Assembly: GCF_003334305.1 (NCBI RefSeq)
Contig: NZ_QOWS01000009.1
Source: Escherichia coli
GTDB taxonomy: Bacteria > Pseudomonadota > Gammaproteobacteria > Enterobacterales > Enterobacteriaceae
Length of the DNA stretch: 64,000 nucleotides
Strand: one strand, 5' to 3'
How positions within the stretch are numbered: position 1 is the stretch's first letter; every line of letters starts with the position of its first letter. The notes under the pieces were generated by a model. That model saw only the letters and a list, made by a program, of their open reading frames with translations. It made no database searches and was not told where the DNA came from. Below are positions 56,378-63,518 of the stretch, piece by piece. The position numbers and the translations under genes are program-made.

Positions 56378-58093
56378 ATGAATTCGTTACAAATCTTGAG
56401 TTTTGTCGGTTTTACGCTGCTGGTGGCGGTGATCACCTGGTGGAAGGTCCGCAAAACAGATACCGGATCGCAACAAGGCTATTTTCTTGCCGGACGTTCA
56501 CTAAAAGCGCCGGTTATTGCCGCTTCGTTAATGCTAACCAACCTTTCCACGGAACAACTGGTCGGCCTTTCCGGGCAGGCCTACAAAAGCGGCATGTCGG
56601 TGATGGGCTGGGAAGTGACTTCAGCGGTGACGCTGATCTTCCTCGCGCTAATCTTTTTACCGCGCTATCTGAAGCGCGGCATTGCCACCATCCCCGATTT
56701 TCTGGAGGAACGTTATGATAAAACGACGCGTATTATCATCGACTTCTGCTTCCTCATTGCCACCGGCGTCTGCTTTCTGCCGATTGTTCTCTACTCCGGC
56801 GCGTTGGCGCTCAACAGCCTGTTTCACGTCGGGGAATCGCTACAGATTTCTCACGGTGCGGCTATCTGGCTACTGGTAATTTTGCTTGGTCTGGCGGGAA
56901 TTTTGTATGCGGTGATCGGCGGACTGCGCGCAATGGCAGTGGCGGACTCCATCAACGGTATTGGGCTGGTTATCGGCGGGTTGATGGTGCCGGTATTTGG
57001 CCTGATCGCGATGGGCAAGGGCAGCTTTATGCAGGGCATTGAGCAACTCACCACCGTTCACGCCGAGAAATTAAACTCAATCGGTGGCCCGACCGATCCC
57101 TTGCCGATTGGCGCGGCATTTACCGGTTTGATTCTGGTGAACACCTTTTACTGGTGTACAAATCAGGGCATCGTGCAACGCACGCTGGCGTCAAAAAGCC
57201 TGGCGGAAGGGCAAAAGGGGGCGCTGTTAACGGCGGTGCTGAAAATGCTCGACCCGCTGGTACTGGTGCTGCCAGGGTTGATTGCGTTTCATCTGTATCA
57301 GGATTTACCGAAAGCCGACATGGCCTACCCGACGCTGGTCAATAACGTTCTGCCAGTGCCAATGGTGGGTTTCTTCGGCGCGGTGTTATTTGGTGCGGTG
57401 ATCAGTACCTTCAACGGCTTTCTGAATAGCGCCAGTACGTTATTCAGTATGGGTATTTACCGTCGCATCATTAACCAGAATGCCGAGCCGCAGCAACTGG
57501 TCACCGTCGGGCGCAAATTTGGTTTCTTTATCGCTATCGTTTCGGTGCTGGTCGCGCCGTGGATCGCCAACGCGCCGCAGGGGCTGTATAGCTGGATGAA
57601 ACAGCTCAACGGCATTTACAACGTGCCGCTGGTTACCATCATCATTATGGGCTTTTTCTTCCCGCGCATCCCGGCGCTGGCGGCAAAAGTGGCGATGGGG
57701 ATTGGCATAATCAGCTACATCACCATCAACTATCTGGTGAAGTTCGACTTCCATTTCCTCTATGTGCTGGCCTGTACGTTCTGCATCAACGTGGTCGTGA
57801 TGCTGGTGATCGGTTTTATCAAACCGCGCGCCACGCCGTTCACCTTCAAAGATGCGTTTGCGGTGGACATGAAACCGTGGAGAAACGTCAAGATCGCGTC
57901 AATTGGCATCCTGTTCGCGATGATTGGCGTCTATGCCGGGCTGGCTGAATTCGGCGGCTACGGTACGCGCTGGTTAGCGATGATCAGTTATTTCATTGCC
58001 GCCGTAGTGATTGTCTACCTGATTTTTGACAGCTGGCGGCATCGTCACGACCCAGCCGTAACCTTTACTCCCGACGCGAAGGATAGCCTATGA
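56378..58093 (+). CDS. yidK: Sodium:solute symporter (SSS family)
   Basis: 571-aa polytopic membrane protein; cotranscribed with the sulfatase gene yidJ. Confidence 0.85.
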   Translation: MNSLQILSFVGFTLLVAVITWWKVRKTDTGSQQGYFLAGRSLKAPVIAASLMLTNLSTEQLVGLSGQAYKSGMSVMGWEVTSAVTLIFLALIFLPRYLKRGIATIPDFLEERYDKTTRIIIDFCFLIATGVCFLPIVLYSGALALNSLFHVGESLQISHGAAIWLLVILLGLAGILYAVIGGLRAMAVADSINGIGLVIGGLMVPVFGLIAMGKGSFMQGIEQLTTVHAEKLNSIGGPTDPLPIGAAFTGLILVNTFYWCTNQGIVQRTLASKSLAEGQKGALLTAVLKMLDPLVLVLPGLIAFHLYQDLPKADMAYPTLVNNVLPVPMVGFFGAVLFGAVISTFNGFLNSASTLFSMGIYRRIINQNAEPQQLVTVGRKFGFFIAIVSVLVAPWIANAPQGLYSWMKQLNGIYNVPLVTIIIMGFFFPRIPALAAKVAMGIGIISYITINYLVKFDFHFLYVLACTFCINVVVMLVIGFIKPRATPFTFKDAFAVDMKPWRNVKIASIGILFAMIGVYAGLAEFGGYGTRWLAMISYFIAAVVIVYLIFDSWRHRHDPAVTFTPDAKDSL

Positions 58094-59583
58094 AACGCCC
58101 CAATTTTCTGTTCATCATGACCGATACCCAGGCCACCAATATGGTCGGTTGCTATAGCGGTAAACCGCTGAATACGCAAAATATTGATAGTCTGGCGGCG
58201 GAAGGTATTCGCTTTAATTCCGCCTACACCTGTTCACCGGTTTGTACGCCTGCACGCGCCGGACTATTTACCGGTATCTACGCTAACCAGTCCGGCCCGT
58301 GGACCAACAACGTCGCGCCAGGCAAAAACATCTCCACTATGGGGCGCTACTTTAAGGATGCCGGCTATCACACCTGTTACATCGGCAAATGGCATCTCGA
58401 CGGTCATGACTATTTCGGCACTGGCGAGTGTCCGCCGGAGTGGGACGCTGATTACTGGTTCGATGGGGCGAACTACCTTAGCGAACTGACGGAAAAAGAG
58501 ATCAGCCTGTGGCGCAATGGCCTAAACAGTGTTGAGGATTTACAGGCGAACCATATCGACGAAACCTTCACCTGGGCGCACCGCATCAGCAATCGGGCGG
58601 TAGATTTTCTGCAACAGCCCGCGCGCGCCGAGGAACCCTTCCTGATGGTGGTTTCGTATGATGAGCCGCATCACCCGTTCACCTGTCCGGTGGAGTATTT
58701 AGAGAAATACGCTGATTTTTACTACGATCTGGGCGAGAAAGCTCAGGATGACCTGGCGAACAAACCGGAACATCACCGCTTATGGGCGCAGGCGATGCCA
58801 TCGCCAGTCGGTGATGACGGGCTTTATCACCATCCGCTCTATTTTGCCTGTAATGACTTTGTTGATGACCAAATCGGACGGGTCATCAATGCCTTAACGC
58901 CAGAGCAACGTGAAAATACGTGGGTCATTTATACTTCCGATCACGGCGAAATGATGGGCGCACATAAGCTGATCAGTAAAGGAGCGGCGATGTATGACGA
59001 CATCACCCGTATTCCGCTGATCATCCGTTCGCCGCAAGGGGAGCGGCGACAGGTCGATACGCCAGTCAGTCATATCGATTTACTGCCGACAATGATGGCG
59101 CTGGCAGATATTGAAAAACCAGAGATTCTGCCGGGGGAAAATATCCTTGCCGTGAAAGAGCCACGCGGTGTAATGGTGGAATTTAACCGCTACGAGATTG
59201 AGCATGACAGCTTTGGCGGTTTTATTCCGGTGCGTTGCTGGGTGACGGATGACTTTAAACTGGTACTCAACCTCTTCACCAGTGATGAACTTTACGATCG
59301 CCGTAATGACCCAAATGAAATGCATAACCTGATCGATGATATCCGTTTTGCAGACGTTCGCAGCAAAATGCATGACGCCTTATTGGATTACATGGACAAA
59401 ATTCGCGATCCGTTCCGCAGTTACCAATGGAGCCTGCGTCCGTGGCGTAAAGATGCACTGCCGCGCTGGATGGGGGCATTTCGTCCACGCCCACAAGATG
59501 GCTATTCGCCGGTGGTACGTGACTATGACACCGGCCTACCGACGCAAGGAGTGAAAGTGGAAGAGAAAAAACAGAAGTTCTGA
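58090..59583 (+). CDS. yidJ: Cys-type sulfatase
   Basis: 497 aa; sulfatase signature with formylglycine motif C-T-P-A-R (SAYTCSPVCTPARAGLFTG). Confidence 0.9.
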   Translation: MKRPNFLFIMTDTQATNMVGCYSGKPLNTQNIDSLAAEGIRFNSAYTCSPVCTPARAGLFTGIYANQSGPWTNNVAPGKNISTMGRYFKDAGYHTCYIGKWHLDGHDYFGTGECPPEWDADYWFDGANYLSELTEKEISLWRNGLNSVEDLQANHIDETFTWAHRISNRAVDFLQQPARAEEPFLMVVSYDEPHHPFTCPVEYLEKYADFYYDLGEKAQDDLANKPEHHRLWAQAMPSPVGDDGLYHHPLYFACNDFVDDQIGRVINALTPEQRENTWVIYTSDHGEMMGAHKLISKGAAMYDDITRIPLIIRSPQGERRQVDTPVSHIDLLPTMMALADIEKPEILPGENILAVKEPRGVMVEFNRYEIEHDSFGGFIPVRCWVTDDFKLVLNLFTSDELYDRRNDPNEMHNLIDDIRFADVRSKMHDALLDYMDKIRDPFRSYQWSLRPWRKDALPRWMGAFRPRPQDGYSPVVRDYDTGLPTQGVKVEEKKQKF

Positions 59584-59629
59584 CGATAATGCCCGCTGAT
59601 GAACACCCGGCGGGCATTATTCAGGCTGC

Positions 59630-60079
59630 TTAAACCAGTGAACCGCCGGTCAGGAAGGAAAAAATCAGGAATATCAGCAAAATGCTGCACACGATGCCGA
59701 TACCAAAAAGCAAGGTATGGAAAGCCAGCGTCCCGCCGCCAAAAACCAGCGCGCCGCGAATGCCCCAGCGATTTTCCTTACGCATACCGCCAATAAATGC
59801 GCAAAGTAGCGCAGCAATGGCCAGTGCGATACCGCTTTGATCGAGGATTTTATCGACATCTACGTCCTCTTTTTTCTCCACGGTGGTAATTTTTTCGCCT
59901 TTTATTCCGGCGAGAAGACCTCTTTTAATTTCAGCCGTTTTGTCCGCCACGATGCTTTCAAACGTTGGCGGTGGTGCGGAAAAAGGGCCGAATGAAAAGT
60001 GGATAATCCCCATCATTAAAGCGATGGCACCGAACAGCATGCCCAATGAACTGATTTTATTTTGAGCTATGATACCCAT
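59630..60079 (-). CDS. yidI: Inner membrane protein
   Basis: 149-aa hydrophobic ORF in the conserved position. Confidence 0.8.
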   Translation of the reverse strand: MGIIAQNKISSLGMLFGAIALMMGIIHFSFGPFSAPPPTFESIVADKTAEIKRGLLAGIKGEKITTVEKKEDVDVDKILDQSGIALAIAALLCAFIGGMRKENRWGIRGALVFGGGTLAFHTLLFGIGIVCSILLIFLIFSFLTGGSLV

Positions 60080-60188
60080 CTGACCTCCTTGTAGCGGATG
60101 GCGAAAGCATATCAGGAAACGGGCGGACGAAATTCTTAAAAAAAAACCGCTAAAGGTAGAGCGTTAGTGAAATTGCAAAGGAGCAACA

Positions 60189-60536
60189 ATGAAAATTTCC
60201 CGCCTTGGAGAAGCGCCCGATTACCGCTTCTCGCTGGCTAATGAGCGTACTTTTCTGGCGTGGATCCGTACCGCACTAGGATTTCTGGCGGCGGGGGTTG
60301 GGCTTGATCAACTTGCGCCAGATTTCGCCACGCCCGTCATTCGTGAACTGCTGGCGTTGTTGTTGTGTCTGTTTTCCGGCGGGTTAGCGATGTATGGCTA
60401 CCTGCGCTGGTTACGCAATGAAAAAGCGATGCGTCTGAAAGAGGACCTGCCCTACACCAACAGCTTATTAATCATTAGCTTAATATTGATGGTCGTGGCG
60501 GTGATCGTTATGGGACTGGTGTTGTATGCCGGATAG
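60189..60536 (+). CDS. yidH: DUF202-family inner membrane protein
   Basis: 115 aa, three predicted TM segments. Confidence 0.8.
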   Translation: MKISRLGEAPDYRFSLANERTFLAWIRTALGFLAAGVGLDQLAPDFATPVIRELLALLLCLFSGGLAMYGYLRWLRNEKAMRLKEDLPYTNSLLIISLILMVVAVIVMGLVLYAG

Positions 60537-60888
60537 CCGCAAAGCCAGACGCATTGCCGACCCAGGACTGCAGCCGGAGCGCACATCACTGGCGTGGTTT
60601 CGTACCATGCTGGGCTACGGCGCGTTGATGGCGTTGGCTATCAAACACAACTGGCACCAGGCGGGCATGTTATTCTGGATTTCGATTGGCATTCTCGCCA
60701 TCGTGGCGCTGATCCTCTGGCACTACACCCGTAATCGCAATTTAATGGATGTCACGAATAGCGATTTTTCCCAATTTCACGTAGTCCGTGACAAATTTTT
60801 GATCTCCCTCGCGGTGTTATCTCTCGCAATACTGTTTGCTGTAACGCATATACATCAACTTATCGTATTTATTGAGAGAGTCGCATGA
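60526..60888 (+). CDS. yidG: Inner membrane protein
   Basis: 120 aa; overlaps yidH and yidF ends (translational coupling). Confidence 0.8.
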   Translation: MPDSRKARRIADPGLQPERTSLAWFRTMLGYGALMALAIKHNWHQAGMLFWISIGILAIVALILWHYTRNRNLMDVTNSDFSQFHVVRDKFLISLAVLSLAILFAVTHIHQLIVFIERVA

Positions 60889-61382
60889 CAGGAAGTCAGG
60901 TCATTGATGCTGAAGAGGACAGGCATAAACTGGTTGTAGAGTACAAGGATGCTCTGCAACCTGCCGATTTTTATCACAATTTCAAACAGTGGGGCATCCG
61001 CTCCGTACAGCTCATTCCCTATCTTGAATTTGATGACCGGGGCGATCTGACGGCCGCTTCGGTGACAGCAGAGCTGTGGGGGAAATTTTTAATTGCCCTG
61101 TTCGAGTGTTGGGTGCGGGCAGATATCAGTCGTATCTCGATTGAGCTTTTTGACGCCACCTTACAAAAATGGTGTGGCAGCGAAAACCCGCAACCGCGCC
61201 GTGACTGCCAGGCGTGCGACTGGCATCGCCTGTGCCCGCACGCTCGCCAGGAGACGCCAGACAGCGTGCTTTGTGCGGGCTATCAGGCGTTTTATTCTTA
61301 CTCCGCACCGCATATGCGGGTGATGCGTGATCTGATAAAGCAGCATCGTTCTCCCATGGAGCTGATGACGATGCTGCGGTGA
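60885..61382 (+). CDS. yidF: Cys-rich protein resembling the C-terminal half of an anaerobic sulfatase-maturating enzyme
   Basis: 165 aa; Cys cluster WCGSENPQPRRDCQACDWHRLCP; no CxxxCxxC radical-SAM motif in the ORF. Confidence 0.78.
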   Translation: MTGSQVIDAEEDRHKLVVEYKDALQPADFYHNFKQWGIRSVQLIPYLEFDDRGDLTAASVTAELWGKFLIALFECWVRADISRISIELFDATLQKWCGSENPQPRRDCQACDWHRLCPHARQETPDSVLCAGYQAFYSYSAPHMRVMRDLIKQHRSPMELMTMLR

Positions 61383-61389
61383 CGTGCGC

Positions 61390-62574
61390 TTAAACGGGCT
61401 GCCCCTGATGCGACATCCGCGTCGCCAGCGGCAGCCAGCACAGCACGATCAACAATCCCATTAAGGTCATCAACAACCCCAGGCTGCCCTGACCGGTTTG
61501 CGGCAACATCGCAGAGAGCGACGCCAGCACGCCGGAACCAATGTTTTGCAGACCGCCGACCAGCGCGCCAGCCGTGCCCGCCAGGAAGGGGAACGGCTCC
61601 ATCGCGCCGCTGGTCGCCAGCGGAAACAGCATCCCGGCACCGAAAAAGAACAGCGCGGCGGGAACGAGCAGCGTCCAGACATTCATCACGCCAAACCAGT
61701 CGGGGATCCACATCAGCAAGCCAGCCAGCAGGCAGCAGATAACCGACTGCCACATTAACGTGGAGAAGCGTTTATTGGGACGTCCGGCAAACCATGCGCC
61801 AAAAAACGCTGCCGGAATCGGCAGAATAAACAAAATACTGACCGTCATACTGCTCAGCCCTAACACCGCGCCCATCAGCACGCCGGAGCAGGCTTCAAAG
61901 GCGGCAATCCCGGCCAGACCGCCAATCAGCATCAGCAAATAACAGTTAAAACCGCTGTTACCGAAAAGCGTTTTATAACTGGTAAGCAGGCGCGTGCGCG
62001 GTGCATCGACCGGACGCGTTTCCGGCATCCAGCGGGCCATACTGAAGGTCACACCAGCACAAAGAACCAACAAAAAGAGATAACAGGCGCGCCAGTTCCA
62101 CATCGTATCCAGCAGACCGCCGATTAGCGGTGCGAGCAACGGACTGACGAGAATCCCCATGTTTAACAGGCTGTTAGCATGGCGCAACTGTGTCCGTTCA
62201 TATAAATCTCGCGGCAAAGTACGCGCCATTACGCCGCCAACGCCGGTGCCCATCCCCTGCATCGCGCTGGCGGCAATCAACACCGTCAAACTGGAGGTCG
62301 TGACCGCGACCAGCGTTGCCAGCATAAAAATGGACATTCCGACGAGGATCACCGGTCGGCGGCCCACGCGGTCGGAAATCGGGCCATAAAACAGCTGTGA
62401 GACACCGTAAGTCAGCAGATAAGCGCCCATTACGCTCTGCACCGCCCCTTCACGGACGTTGAGATCGCGCGCCATATCGGCAATAGCTGGAATATAAATG
62501 GTTTGCGCCATCTGACCGACGGCCACGAGTAATACCAACATCAATAACAAATTGACGTTTCTTTGCCTTTTCAT
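61390..62574 (-). CDS. emrD: MFS multidrug efflux transporter
   Basis: 394 aa from MKRQRNVNLLLMLVLLVAVGQMAQTIYIPAIADMARDLNV. Confidence 0.93.
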   Translation of the reverse strand: MKRQRNVNLLLMLVLLVAVGQMAQTIYIPAIADMARDLNVREGAVQSVMGAYLLTYGVSQLFYGPISDRVGRRPVILVGMSIFMLATLVAVTTSSLTVLIAASAMQGMGTGVGGVMARTLPRDLYERTQLRHANSLLNMGILVSPLLAPLIGGLLDTMWNWRACYLFLLVLCAGVTFSMARWMPETRPVDAPRTRLLTSYKTLFGNSGFNCYLLMLIGGLAGIAAFEACSGVLMGAVLGLSSMTVSILFILPIPAAFFGAWFAGRPNKRFSTLMWQSVICCLLAGLLMWIPDWFGVMNVWTLLVPAALFFFGAGMLFPLATSGAMEPFPFLAGTAGALVGGLQNIGSGVLASLSAMLPQTGQGSLGLLMTLMGLLIVLCWLPLATRMSHQGQPV

Positions 62575-62762
62575 TATCACGGATGCTTTTATAAAAATAA
62601 TTAGAATAAGTCACTACGCATTCCCATAAATGCGGGAGAGGAATCTATCACATTGATGAATGTTAGCCAGATATACGCCAGGAATGGGGAATTGTTTAGC
62701 GGCAGAATATGTAAACAAAAGCGGCAATAAATGTTGCCGGGAGGGATTACGTGCGAACTGTA

Positions 62763-62860
62763 ACCCTCTCCCCAAAGGGGCGAGGGGGAAACCACCGTTC
62801 CCTTTCAGAAAATGAGCTAAACATTGCACGGGACGGTCCCCTCGCCCCTTTGGGGAGAGG
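62763..62860. repeat. Perfect 24-bp inverted repeat (ccctctccccaaaggggcgagggg) with 50-bp spacer
   Basis: Arm 62763-62786 is exactly the reverse complement of 62837-62860; each arm is itself near-palindromic; the right arm continues into a G-tract run ggggagagggctagggtgagggg. Confidence 0.85.
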
Positions 62861-62944
62861 GCTAGGGTGAGGGGCACAGGCAGCGCAGGTGCAAACATTC
62901 TGCTGGTAGAAGAAGCCCCCAACTCCAACCCGCACGCTAAATAT

Positions 62945-62975
62945 AAAAGGGGAGCGGTTACCCGCTCCCCTTTGG
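62945..62975 (-). terminator. Probable terminator downstream of tisB
   Basis: aaaggggagcggttacccgctccccttt hairpin immediately 3' of tisB on the minus strand, followed by ttttat on that strand. Confidence 0.6.
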
Positions 62976-62992
62976 TGCGACTTGAATCTGAA

Positions 62993-63336: not shown

Positions 63337-63442
63337 ATATTTGGACAAAACGCAAACTGTGATCGATACTCAACTATGCCCTAAATACGTCAAAATTCGT
63401 GCCGAAATTGCGCGTTCTGCGCGGAACACGTATACTTTCAGT

Positions 63443-63518
63443 GTTGACATAATACAGTGTGCTTTGCGGTTACCAGCCGCAGGCGGCTGATGAAACCTCG
63501 CTCCGGCGGGGTTTTTTG
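63443..63518 (+). ncRNA. istR: Antitoxin sRNA IstR-1 (boundaries approximate)
   Basis: gttgacataatacagtgtgctttgcggttaccagccgcaggcggctgatgaaacctcgctccggcggggttttttgtt matches the remembered IstR-1 sequence; a TATACT -10-like hexamer lies at 63431-63436; ends in a hairpin plus U-run. Confidence 0.75.

Follow-up and report, generated by a model that had tools for sequence, protein, structure and literature searches.

The closest described relatives of the protein considered here are the anaerobic sulfatase-maturating enzymes (anSMEs), among them AtsB, ChuR and anSMEcpe (family TIGR03942; Protein Data Bank (PDB) entries 4K36-4K39). In anSMEcpe, Cys317, Cys320, Cys326 and Cys348 are what we take to be the ligands of auxiliary cluster II, and those of auxiliary cluster I are presumably Cys255, Cys261, Cys276 and Cys330. 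Also comparable are the BtrN-type twitch-domain radical S-adenosylmethionine (SAM) enzymes, with a reduced SPASM region and a single auxiliary cluster, which reportedly keep the radical-SAM core and a cluster near the active site. Escherichia coli K-12 has two full-length paralogues with the radical-SAM motif CxxxCxxC, the putative anSMEs AslB (411 amino acids, aa) and YdeM (385 aa), encoded beside aslA and ydeN. The DNA analysed here (the window) is a stretch of 64,000 nucleotides (nt) of E. coli contig NZ_QOWS01000009.1, assembly GCF_003334305.1, in which a much shorter member of the same family, yidF, lies downstream of the sulfatase gene yidJ. We found that yidF descends from a full-length anSME gene of this locus, that in-frame deletions have removed its radical-SAM core, and that the remaining protein is held by purifying selection; the best reading of it is as a pseudoenzyme to which some residual role is left.

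The preliminary description of this DNA, made from the letters alone, had reported a YidF of 165 aa, Cys-rich in its second half and without CxxxCxxC, and the sequence bears this out: all six cysteines (positions 75, 97, 108, 111, 117 and 130) lie in the second half, and the CxxxCxxC motif is absent. A Pfam scan of YidF gave no meaningful match, either to Radical_SAM (PF04055) or to SPASM (PF13186). The NCBIfam model TIGR03942 was matched with E = 6.8e-21, though its score of 74.7 bits is far below the 349 bits required for the family; the match is in two stretches, the first of which places YidF residues 17-101 on profile positions 160-245 of 363. Two blocks were also obtained by phmmer against the PDB (YidF 28-95 on anSMEcpe 176-246 and YidF 103-152 on anSMEcpe 312-370) and by BLASTP against E. 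coli AslB (YidF 16-99 on AslB 171-271 and YidF 87-161 on AslB 317-402). With all three, YidF aligns to the C-terminal region of the maturases, the relation that had been supposed, and not to an unrelated family. In the phmmer alignment, Cys108, Cys111, Cys117 and Cys130 of YidF fall on Cys317, Cys320, Cys326 and Cys348 of anSMEcpe, forming a CX2CX5C...C motif; of the auxiliary cluster I positions, three lie in a segment deleted from YidF and the fourth, the equivalent of Cys330, is missing in E. coli. Cys108, Cys111 and Cys130 are invariant in 31/31 short and 9/9 full-length forms, and a fourth cysteine is present in every short form, at the CX2CX5C position or the next one, being shifted only in Klebsiella pneumoniae ATCC 13883. 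AlphaFold2, run with an alignment of short forms only, returned a confident anSME-like sub-fold (predicted local distance difference test, pLDDT, 79.5; predicted template modelling score, pTM, 0.77), with local pLDDT of 85-95 in the barrel remnant and of about 90 in the C-terminal helices. When this model was compared with the PDB by Foldseek, anSMEcpe alone was found at E <= 0.001, as eight chains of 4k36-4k39, with probability 1.0 and a template modelling score TMq of 0.61.

YidF shares with the anSMEs its homology, the fold match, the C-terminal helices and the CX2CX5C...C set, for which cluster binding is predicted; it also descends from the cognate maturase of a CxPxR sulfatase and takes that enzyme's place in the gene order. 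Unlike them, it has neither the CxxxCxxC site nor a radical-SAM domain, it lacks about 150 barrel residues and the N-terminal part of SPASM with the auxiliary cluster I ligands, and it stays below the TIGR03942 cut-off. It resembles the BtrN-type enzymes in its reduced SPASM region and in the single auxiliary cluster predicted for it, and differs from them in keeping only the distal, auxiliary-cluster-II-type site. YidF is a homologue and derivative of an anSME and should not be classed as an anSME; its RefSeq/PGAP product name is 'radical SAM protein', although it contains neither of the Radical_SAM and SPASM Pfam domains.

The ancestry of the gene is documented at the same locus in other genomes. 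A search for YidF homologues yielded proteins of 162-178 aa with 41-52% identity in Escherichia, Citrobacter, Leclercia, Superficieibacter, Silvania and Klebsiella, nearly all beginning with MTG[CS]Q and all ending in ...SAPHMRVMRDLIKQHRSPMELMAMLR. On an Atlantibacter contig the order is araC - yidK - yidJ - yidH - yidG - anSME, and this anSME of 374 aa starts with MTGCHVMAKPASSRCNLRCRYC, overlaps the yidG stop with its ATG and is interrupted by nothing but an 'nn' ambiguity in the assembly. A search with this full-length protein revealed orthologues of 364-381 aa with matching termini, widespread in Enterobacteriaceae, which share the MTGCQ start and the C-terminus SAPHMRVMRDL...HRSPMELM. Context look-ups placed a full-length anSME directly after yidH-yidG in Citrobacter freundii, in Leclercia and in a Salmonella-labelled genome; the C. 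freundii site (ibpAB - yidE - ... - emrD) is the chromosomal site of the short form in other Citrobacter. We then surveyed one genome per species with conserved C-terminal YidF peptides as patterns and obtained 65 loci. The yidH-yidG pair stands immediately upstream of yidF in every one of them that is long enough to show the neighbours; 31 loci, in Enterobacteriaceae other than E. coli, have an intact full-length gene after this pair (lengths overall 364-407 aa), and most loci, full-length and short, have a yidF start codon that overlaps the end of yidG (d = -3). The order sulfatase - DUF202 - DUF202 - anSME was also found in Erwinia typographi (L076), Psychromonas ossibalaenae (L075) and a metagenome contig (L077). 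Thus genomes with a full-length maturase at this locus, with which a comparison had been proposed, do exist, and the ancestral module is yidL (AraC regulator) - yidK - yidJ - yidH - yidG - yidF, the last encoding an anSME of about 370 aa. The full-length YidF-type anSMEs (e.g. P0135 of C. freundii, P0119 of Atlantibacter subterranea and P0156 of Leclercia) have in common with E. coli YidF the orthologous locus, the yidH-yidG neighbours, the start overlap, the MTGCQ N-terminus, the C-terminal SAPHMRVMRDLIKQHRSPMELMAMLR and 45-50% identity in shared columns. They differ in having 364-381 aa, three cluster motifs and a ratio of non-synonymous to synonymous substitutions (dN/dS) of about 0.1, compared with 165 aa, one motif and about 0.16 in E. 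coli. In P. ossibalaenae the module (L075, 3699-12858) adjoins a GH88 unsaturated glucuronyl hydrolase, LamB and a solute:sodium symporter (SSS) transporter, and these neighbours suggest a sulfated unsaturated glycosaminoglycan-type sugar as the substrate of the module.

An alignment of 31 short and 9 full-length forms separates the shortening of YidF into two in-frame losses. The first comprises the radical-SAM core with CxxxCxxC, approximately residues 7-155 of the full-length protein (about 150 residues); it follows codons 1-8, and its junction can be placed no closer than residues 8-16. The second, which the preliminary description had overlooked, is internal to SPASM and took about 60 residues, including the three N-terminal ligands of auxiliary cluster I. 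What has been kept is the yidG-coupled start, the end of the barrel with its last beta/alpha units, the CX2CX5C...C motif and the C-terminal helices. The internal deletion is common to 31/31 aligned short forms with near-identical boundaries, starting right after W[CR]Gxxxx and stopping about nine residues before CxxC. The N-terminal loss is lineage-dependent, with about ten or more junction architectures, all in frame, which give short forms of 165-249 aa; degenerate N-terminal pieces are kept in Pluralibacter (L043), MGYG-HGUT-00110 (L041), L003 and Citrobacter amalonaticus ku-bf3 (L039). Escherichia has the short yidF, as do about half of the Enterobacteriaceae species sampled. Between both states there are near-full-length genes in which CxxxCxxC is destroyed and/or the auxiliary-cluster-I region has suffered small in-frame deletions, independently of one another: L031 has lost a radical-SAM cysteine and 14 residues of that region, L038 has lost 23 residues of it and L029 four, and P0359 (311 aa) is motif-dead and lies after yidH-yidG in a locus without yidJ, P0362 (310 aa) being of like class. 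One locus therefore shows the full series of intact, lesioned, short and absent genes. The near-full-length open genes (L031 7001-8083, L038 7001-8053, L029 7001-8110, P0359 in L085 5001-5936, and P0362) were all observed in yidJ-less loci.

Short YidF is not a neutral pseudogene. The search for short loci was based on tblastn, which is able to recover frameshifted copies, and of the 35 short-form loci, 33 have a frame that runs unbroken from the start codon through the conserved C-terminus. We estimated dN/dS by the pairwise method of Nei and Gojobori (NG86) within groups of like architecture; because both members of a pair share their architecture, all the differences counted post-date the deletions. 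The median dN/dS of short yidF was 0.16 in Escherichia and 0.18 in Citrobacter, and four single pairs gave 0.11-0.32, while full-length yidF gave 0.08-0.14. Pooled over seven independent pairs, the value for short yidF was 0.20, with fewer non-synonymous changes than expected under neutrality (binomial p = 8e-56). Along the E. coli protein, dN/dS was 0.27 for residues 1-16, 0.20 for residues 17-101, 0.27 for residues 102-131 and 0.10 for residues 132-165; the C-terminal helices, with 0.10 in short and 0.14 in full-length forms, are the most constrained part. Furthermore, yidHGF is present in 5421/5426 complete E. coli genomes. The open reading frame (ORF) of YidF has been kept, translationally coupled and constrained in its amino acids since before the Escherichia species diverged, and short YidF is held by purifying selection, irrespective of yidJ.

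These results bear directly on the choice, posed in the preliminary description, between a remnant and a protein with a different role. YidF is a remnant by descent, as had been proposed, but the two options are not exclusive since purifying selection also acts on it, and both hold. The simplest rival, a functionless pseudogene fragment awaiting erasure, with YidJ matured in trans and nothing more, we consider unlikely. It is true that the decay series is complete, from motif-dead forms of about 310-360 aa (P0359, P0362, L031, L038) through short forms of 165-249 aa and frameshifted copies (L033, L036, L070, L073) to absence in Enterobacter kobei and Raoultella; that loci with a damaged maturase tend to have lost yidJ as well (Fisher p = 0.005 and an odds ratio of about 5, kinship ignored); and that neither Pfam family of anSMEs, Radical_SAM or SPASM, matches YidF. 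However, a fragment of this kind would not show a dN/dS of about 0.2 (p = 8e-56) over independent pairs all younger than the deletions, nor C-terminal 34 residues as constrained as in the active enzymes, nor 33 of 35 short copies in frame from the yidG-coupled ATG despite many independent deletions. The conserved four-Cys set, the confident predicted fold and the status of a core gene, in all but five of the 5426 E. coli genomes, speak against it as well. YidF is best read as a pseudoenzyme, that is, a catalytically dead but selected homologue, which has lost its catalytic apparatus while its remaining fold is under purifying selection. It differs from typical pseudoenzymes in that the loss came about by large in-frame deletions and not by substitution of catalytic residues, although motif-dead intermediates of about 310 aa exist; the non-catalytic function that the comparison calls for is putative in YidF.

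The presumed partner of the ancestral enzyme is well preserved. By domain and motif, YidJ is a type I sulfatase, matching Pfam PF00884 Sulfatase over residues 4-341 with E = 1.8e-72, and conversion of its Cys52 is predicted. The C-x-P-x-R motif (CTPAR) announced in the preliminary description was confirmed at residues 52-56 and persists when orthologues are aligned: the extended signature SPVCTPARAGLFTG is identical in 26/28 YidJ orthologues, beside full and short YidF alike, and CTPAR is therefore not a chance match. Scores against the arylsulfatase model PRK13759 (218.8) and the choline sulfatase model TIGR03417 (201.9) are below the respective NCBIfam cut-offs of 481 and 433. The N-terminus of YidJ passes directly into the sulfatase domain, and since there is no extension for a signal peptide the protein is probably cytoplasmic. 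The gene has a Nei-Gojobori dN/dS of 0.03-0.05 and is present in 5131/5426 complete E. coli genomes.

Maturase integrity tracks the sulfatase, as a cognate pair would. Among non-redundant loci, yidJ is present in 19 and absent from 12 of those with intact full-length yidF, and present in 8 and absent from 25 of those with short yidF (one 'absent' locus ends at a contig end), which corresponds to an odds ratio of about 5 (Fisher p = 0.005) with phylogeny ignored; the lesioned or frameshifted full-type copies are all in yidJ-less loci (4/4). The exceptions, in which yidK-yidJ is kept constrained and with SPVCTPARAGLFTG unchanged beside a dead maturase, are Escherichia, Salmonella enterica arizonae, Superficieibacter and one uncultured enterobacterium. 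In about 290 of the 5426 complete E. coli genomes yidJ is missing while yidH-yidG-yidF is kept; a few of these retain the last ~160 nt of yidJ.

The explanation that we favour, and regard as probable, is that YidF is a dead maturase derivative kept by selection, that YidJ is matured otherwise, and that the leftover has another role. YidF derives from a full-length anSME, the cognate maturase of YidJ, and in-frame deletions have removed its radical-SAM core and the auxiliary cluster I segment. To judge from the established anSME mechanism, the short protein would be unable to cleave SAM, to generate the 5'-deoxyadenosyl radical or to abstract the C-beta hydrogen, and since it has no site for the radical-SAM cluster it should not be able to make formylglycine. 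With YidF dead and YidJ constrained with an unchanged CTPAR, YidJ would have to be matured in trans, which the preliminary description had suggested and which we find a reasonable reading, given the presence of AslB and YdeM and a YidF unable to be a radical-SAM maturase. These other maturase homologues, to which attention had been drawn, belong to one family with YidF and, being full length with CxxxCxxC, are candidates for this task. Neither of them is reportedly required for aerobic Cys-type maturation in E. coli. YidJ might thus be matured by AslB or YdeM under anaerobic conditions, or by an aslB/ydeM-independent Cys-type system; alternatively, it may be largely unmodified and work poorly. 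The Cys-modifying machinery of E. coli 'has been elusive', in the words of PMC6189696, which cites Benjdia et al. 2007. As for YidF itself, we propose with modest confidence that it is made by translational coupling with YidG. It may persist as a small protein, probably with a single [4Fe-4S] cluster of the auxiliary-cluster-II type, and its residual role might be independent of formylglycine formation, perhaps linked to YidG/YidH and dispensable in some lineages. More specifically, and only tentatively, the relic may have found new use as a small Fe-S protein that stems from the auxiliary cluster II region and has a function unrelated to sulfatases; we hold this to be likelier than a role in the maturation system, and such re-use would explain its retention beside yidH-yidG in genomes without yidJ.

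That short YidF still aids sulfatase maturation without radical-SAM chemistry, either as a substrate-binding or electron-relay partner of AslB/YdeM or as a component of an oxygen-dependent, aslB/ydeM-independent Cys-type system, is a little less likely still than the pseudogene just discussed. The gene is encoded in a sulfatase module and descends from the cognate maturase, the auxiliary-cluster-II cysteines are kept, and auxiliary cluster II of anSMEs is said to relay an electron from the active site. EcoGene reportedly once labelled YidF as a predicted 'Cys-type oxidative YidJ-maturating enzyme'. Strong selection on YidJ in Escherichia, Superficieibacter and S. arizonae despite a dead cognate enzyme would also agree with such a role, as would the elusive Cys-type machinery of E. 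coli in the passage quoted from PMC6189696. Nevertheless, short YidF is kept under similar constraint in 25 loci showing no yidJ, about 290 complete E. coli genomes have yidHGF and lack yidJ, the parts of the anSME around substrate and SAM are gone, and no experiment tying yidF to maturation was found in our literature search. Its narrower version, in which short YidF would be an active single-cluster relay or substrate-handling protein, without radical-SAM activity, of the aslB/ydeM-independent system, appears very improbable.

We also give little credit to the idea that the constraint acts on other information in the yidF DNA, such as a coupling that affects yidG expression, mRNA stability or a target site for a small RNA (sRNA). 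The ATGA overlap with yidG is conserved and yidF mRNA occurs in chimeras with GcvB (PMC9299463), but constraint at this level would lower dS or act locally, and would not give a dN far below dS over 165 codons; the dS of yidF is not below that of its neighbours, and neither the invariant cysteines nor the conserved predicted fold are accounted for. Finally, the E. coli gene order alone (two small genes before a C-terminal maturase fragment) could suggest that the radical-SAM half of an ancestral maturase gene was interrupted by an insertion of yidH and yidG, or replaced by them. This has practically no chance of being right, since every full-length orthologue has yidH-yidG directly upstream, usually with a 4-nt overlap, short forms still begin with the 5-8 codons (MTGCQ...) that open the full-length gene, and no frame of the yidI-yidH-yidG interval shows any similarity to a radical-SAM domain.

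The preliminary description had seen the two membrane-protein genes as sitting where the radical-SAM half would be, and this view has to be abandoned: because full-length maturases follow an identical yidH-yidG pair, these genes are ancestral, conserved members of the module and not occupants of that place. A tblastn search with full-length orthologues over the six frames of 59500-61500, which was to reveal radical-SAM remnants in other frames of the yidH-yidG interval, found none; only orthologue residues 158-255 and 309-369 matched, both in the yidF frame, and the best noise at permissive settings (E 0.05) was inside yidF on the wrong strand. YidH and YidG carry the PF02656 domain according to precomputed Pfam matches on orthologous genes and YidH homologues. 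Their genes are strongly constrained (dN/dS 0.005-0.05 for yidH and 0.05-0.09 for yidG, compared with 0.04-0.07 for emrD). In a screen, YidH came up as a candidate exporter of D-alanine but had no effect on transport. We also observed yidH-yidG without any form of yidF in E. kobei (L078/L079, 4001-4708) and Raoultella (L080-L082, 4001-4748), where the gene after yidG encodes a PALP-family enzyme on the minus strand, 8-48 nt past the yidG stop. The function of the DUF202 pair therefore requires neither sulfatase nor maturase, and the idea of YidF as an obligate partner of YidG/YidH was rejected. The remaining small gene, yidI, is confined to loci of Escherichia, a few Citrobacter and S. enterica arizonae/diarizonae and has no match in NCBIfam; it is a lineage-restricted insertion outside the ancestral module. 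Loci without it have a yidJ-yidH gap of about 40-100 nt. Since yidI lies on the opposite strand between yidJ and yidH, the sulfatase gene and yidHGF of E. coli are probably no longer one transcript.

Several points weigh against YidF as a selected pseudoenzyme with a role of its own. The series of intact, lesioned, short and absent genes resembles ordinary gene decay, and two type or reference strains, Escherichia albertii NBRC 107761 (L070) and Leclercia NCTC13032 (L073), carry frameshifts. Constraint on the short forms is about twofold relaxed relative to the full forms; in addition, pairwise NG86 is a crude estimator, with dS > 1 in some pairs, and recombination at the yidF locus could distort the estimates. 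AlphaFold confidence is low in the Cys region, although in residues 100-125 only, and the proposed assignment of the auxiliary-cluster-II ligands comes from alignment to one solved structure. The presence of yidH-yidG without yidF in E. kobei and Raoultella means that a role of YidF with YidG/YidH is not obligatory. Moreover, the sole hint of YidF expression is a chimera of its mRNA with the sRNA GcvB obtained by RNA interaction by ligation and sequencing (RIL-seq; PMC9299463).

Regarding the origin of the short forms, one old event followed by recombination and several events are both possible, and the shared boundaries of the internal deletion suggest a single event. In a neighbour-joining tree of 157 shared columns, full-length Leclercia YidF groups with the short forms of Leclercia and Silvania (bootstrap 95), with which it also shares a 5-residue gap and a C-terminal extension; this group stands apart from the short forms of Escherichia, Citrobacter and Salmonella. 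Short and full alleles were observed at one locus within a genus, in Leclercia (L061 vs L025) and in Citrobacter (L004 vs L006). In such pairs the flanks are 85-95% identical and the retained yidF segment only 70-79%, and this difference suggests an old allelic dimorphism with recombining flanks. Between the window and other Escherichia (L064-L066, L071), the dS of yidF (0.76-0.83) exceeds that of the flanking yidH, yidG and emrD (0.43-0.52), and the history of the yidF segment may differ from that of its flanks. A profile search of 1.84 billion representatives also returned four anSME-like proteins of 240-338 aa (P0416, P0450, P0486 and P0401) from apparently unrelated lineages, partly of high guanine-plus-cytosine content, which lack the auxiliary-cluster-I segment, two of them lacking CxxxCxxC too; reduction like that of YidF may recur outside Enterobacteriaceae.

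The features of the locus are collected in Table 1.

Table 1. Genes of the yidK-yidF segment and features of YidJ and YidF, in window positions
Feature	Position	Strand	Description	Evidence
yidK	56378..58093	+	Solute:sodium symporter, first gene of the module	NCBIfam NF007790, E = 1e-257
yidJ	58090..59583	+	497 aa, type I sulfatase	Pfam Sulfatase and SGSH_C
CTPAR formylglycine signature	58243..58257	+	YidJ residues 52-56	Translation verified
yidI	59630..60079	-	Small membrane-protein gene between yidJ and yidH	
yidH	60189..60536	+	DUF202 membrane protein	Pfam PF02656 in orthologues
yidG	60526..60888	+	Second DUF202 membrane protein; 11-nt overlap with yidH and 4-nt overlap with yidF	
ATGA overlap	60885..60888	+	yidF start and yidG stop, translational coupling	Sequence read
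yidF	60885..61382	+	165 aa, anSME derivative with two deletions	
N-terminal stub MTGSQVID	60885..60908	+	Corresponds to MTGCQVMA of full-length forms	
Barrel remnant	60933..61181	+	YidF residues 17-99; about 158-243 of full-length YidF-type, about 176-246 of anSMEcpe, 171-271 of AslB	
Internal-deletion junction	61179..61184	+	Ser99/Glu100	Alignment of short and full forms
CX2CX5C...C motif	61206..61274	+	Cys108, Cys111, Cys117, Cys130	phmmer alignment
C-terminal helices ...LCAGYQAFYSYSAPHMRVMRDLIKQHRSPMELMTMLR	61263..61379	+	Most conserved part of YidF	

The ORF positions of the preliminary description were reproduced exactly. The end of yidK overlaps the start of yidJ, and yidK was found upstream of yidJ in yidJ-positive loci; emrD follows yidF on the minus strand, and the stretch yidK-emrD spans 56378-62580, along which RefSeq E. 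coli genomes show matching gene names. At the DNA level, the yidH-yidF segment is 100% identical to that of strain H15 and 99.3% to that of BW25113. A Shine-Dalgarno-like run, GAGAG, lies 7-11 nt upstream of the yidF ATG, and a scan of 59500-61600 for promoters and terminators gave nothing above the shuffled expectation. Beyond emrD, the intergenic region 62761-62980 contains three copies of a palindromic repeat of 20-27 nt (CCCTCGCCCCTTTGGGGAGAGGG), two of which form a 27-nt inverted pair with 96% complementarity; they probably belong to one of the intergenic repeat families of E. coli. The sRNA istR was detected at 63388-63517 on the plus strand (Rfam RF01400, 149 bits), as expected beside tisB.

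The short length of E. coli YidF is already known, being visible in any database, and older annotation reportedly speculated that YidF matures YidJ. Our literature search found no paper on the function of yidF, and an apparent mention of it turned out to be a typo for YdiF. Relative to the literature searched, the full-length orthologue at the locus, the place of YidH/YidG as an integral part of the module, the decay series at one locus and the selection on the relic appear to be new. We see here a moderately interesting example of a maturase that became a pseudoenzyme, and not a new kind of system. In practical terms, the RefSeq name 'radical SAM protein' is at odds with the lost radical-SAM domain of YidF. 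The DUF202 pair YidH/YidG, previously without context, proves to be an integral member, and a very conserved one, of a sulfatase-maturase module that reaches beyond Enterobacteriaceae. The locus also constitutes a natural experiment, in which related species have, at one position, either an intact maturase, a long form with dead motifs, a short form or no gene at all, and it offers a tractable case of a radical-SAM enzyme becoming a pseudoenzyme and possibly a one-cluster Fe-S protein. Lastly, the genus has kept YidJ functional throughout its history although the cognate maturase is gone, so that YidJ would be a natural reporter substrate for whatever system makes formylglycine in the Cys-type sulfatases of E. 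coli.

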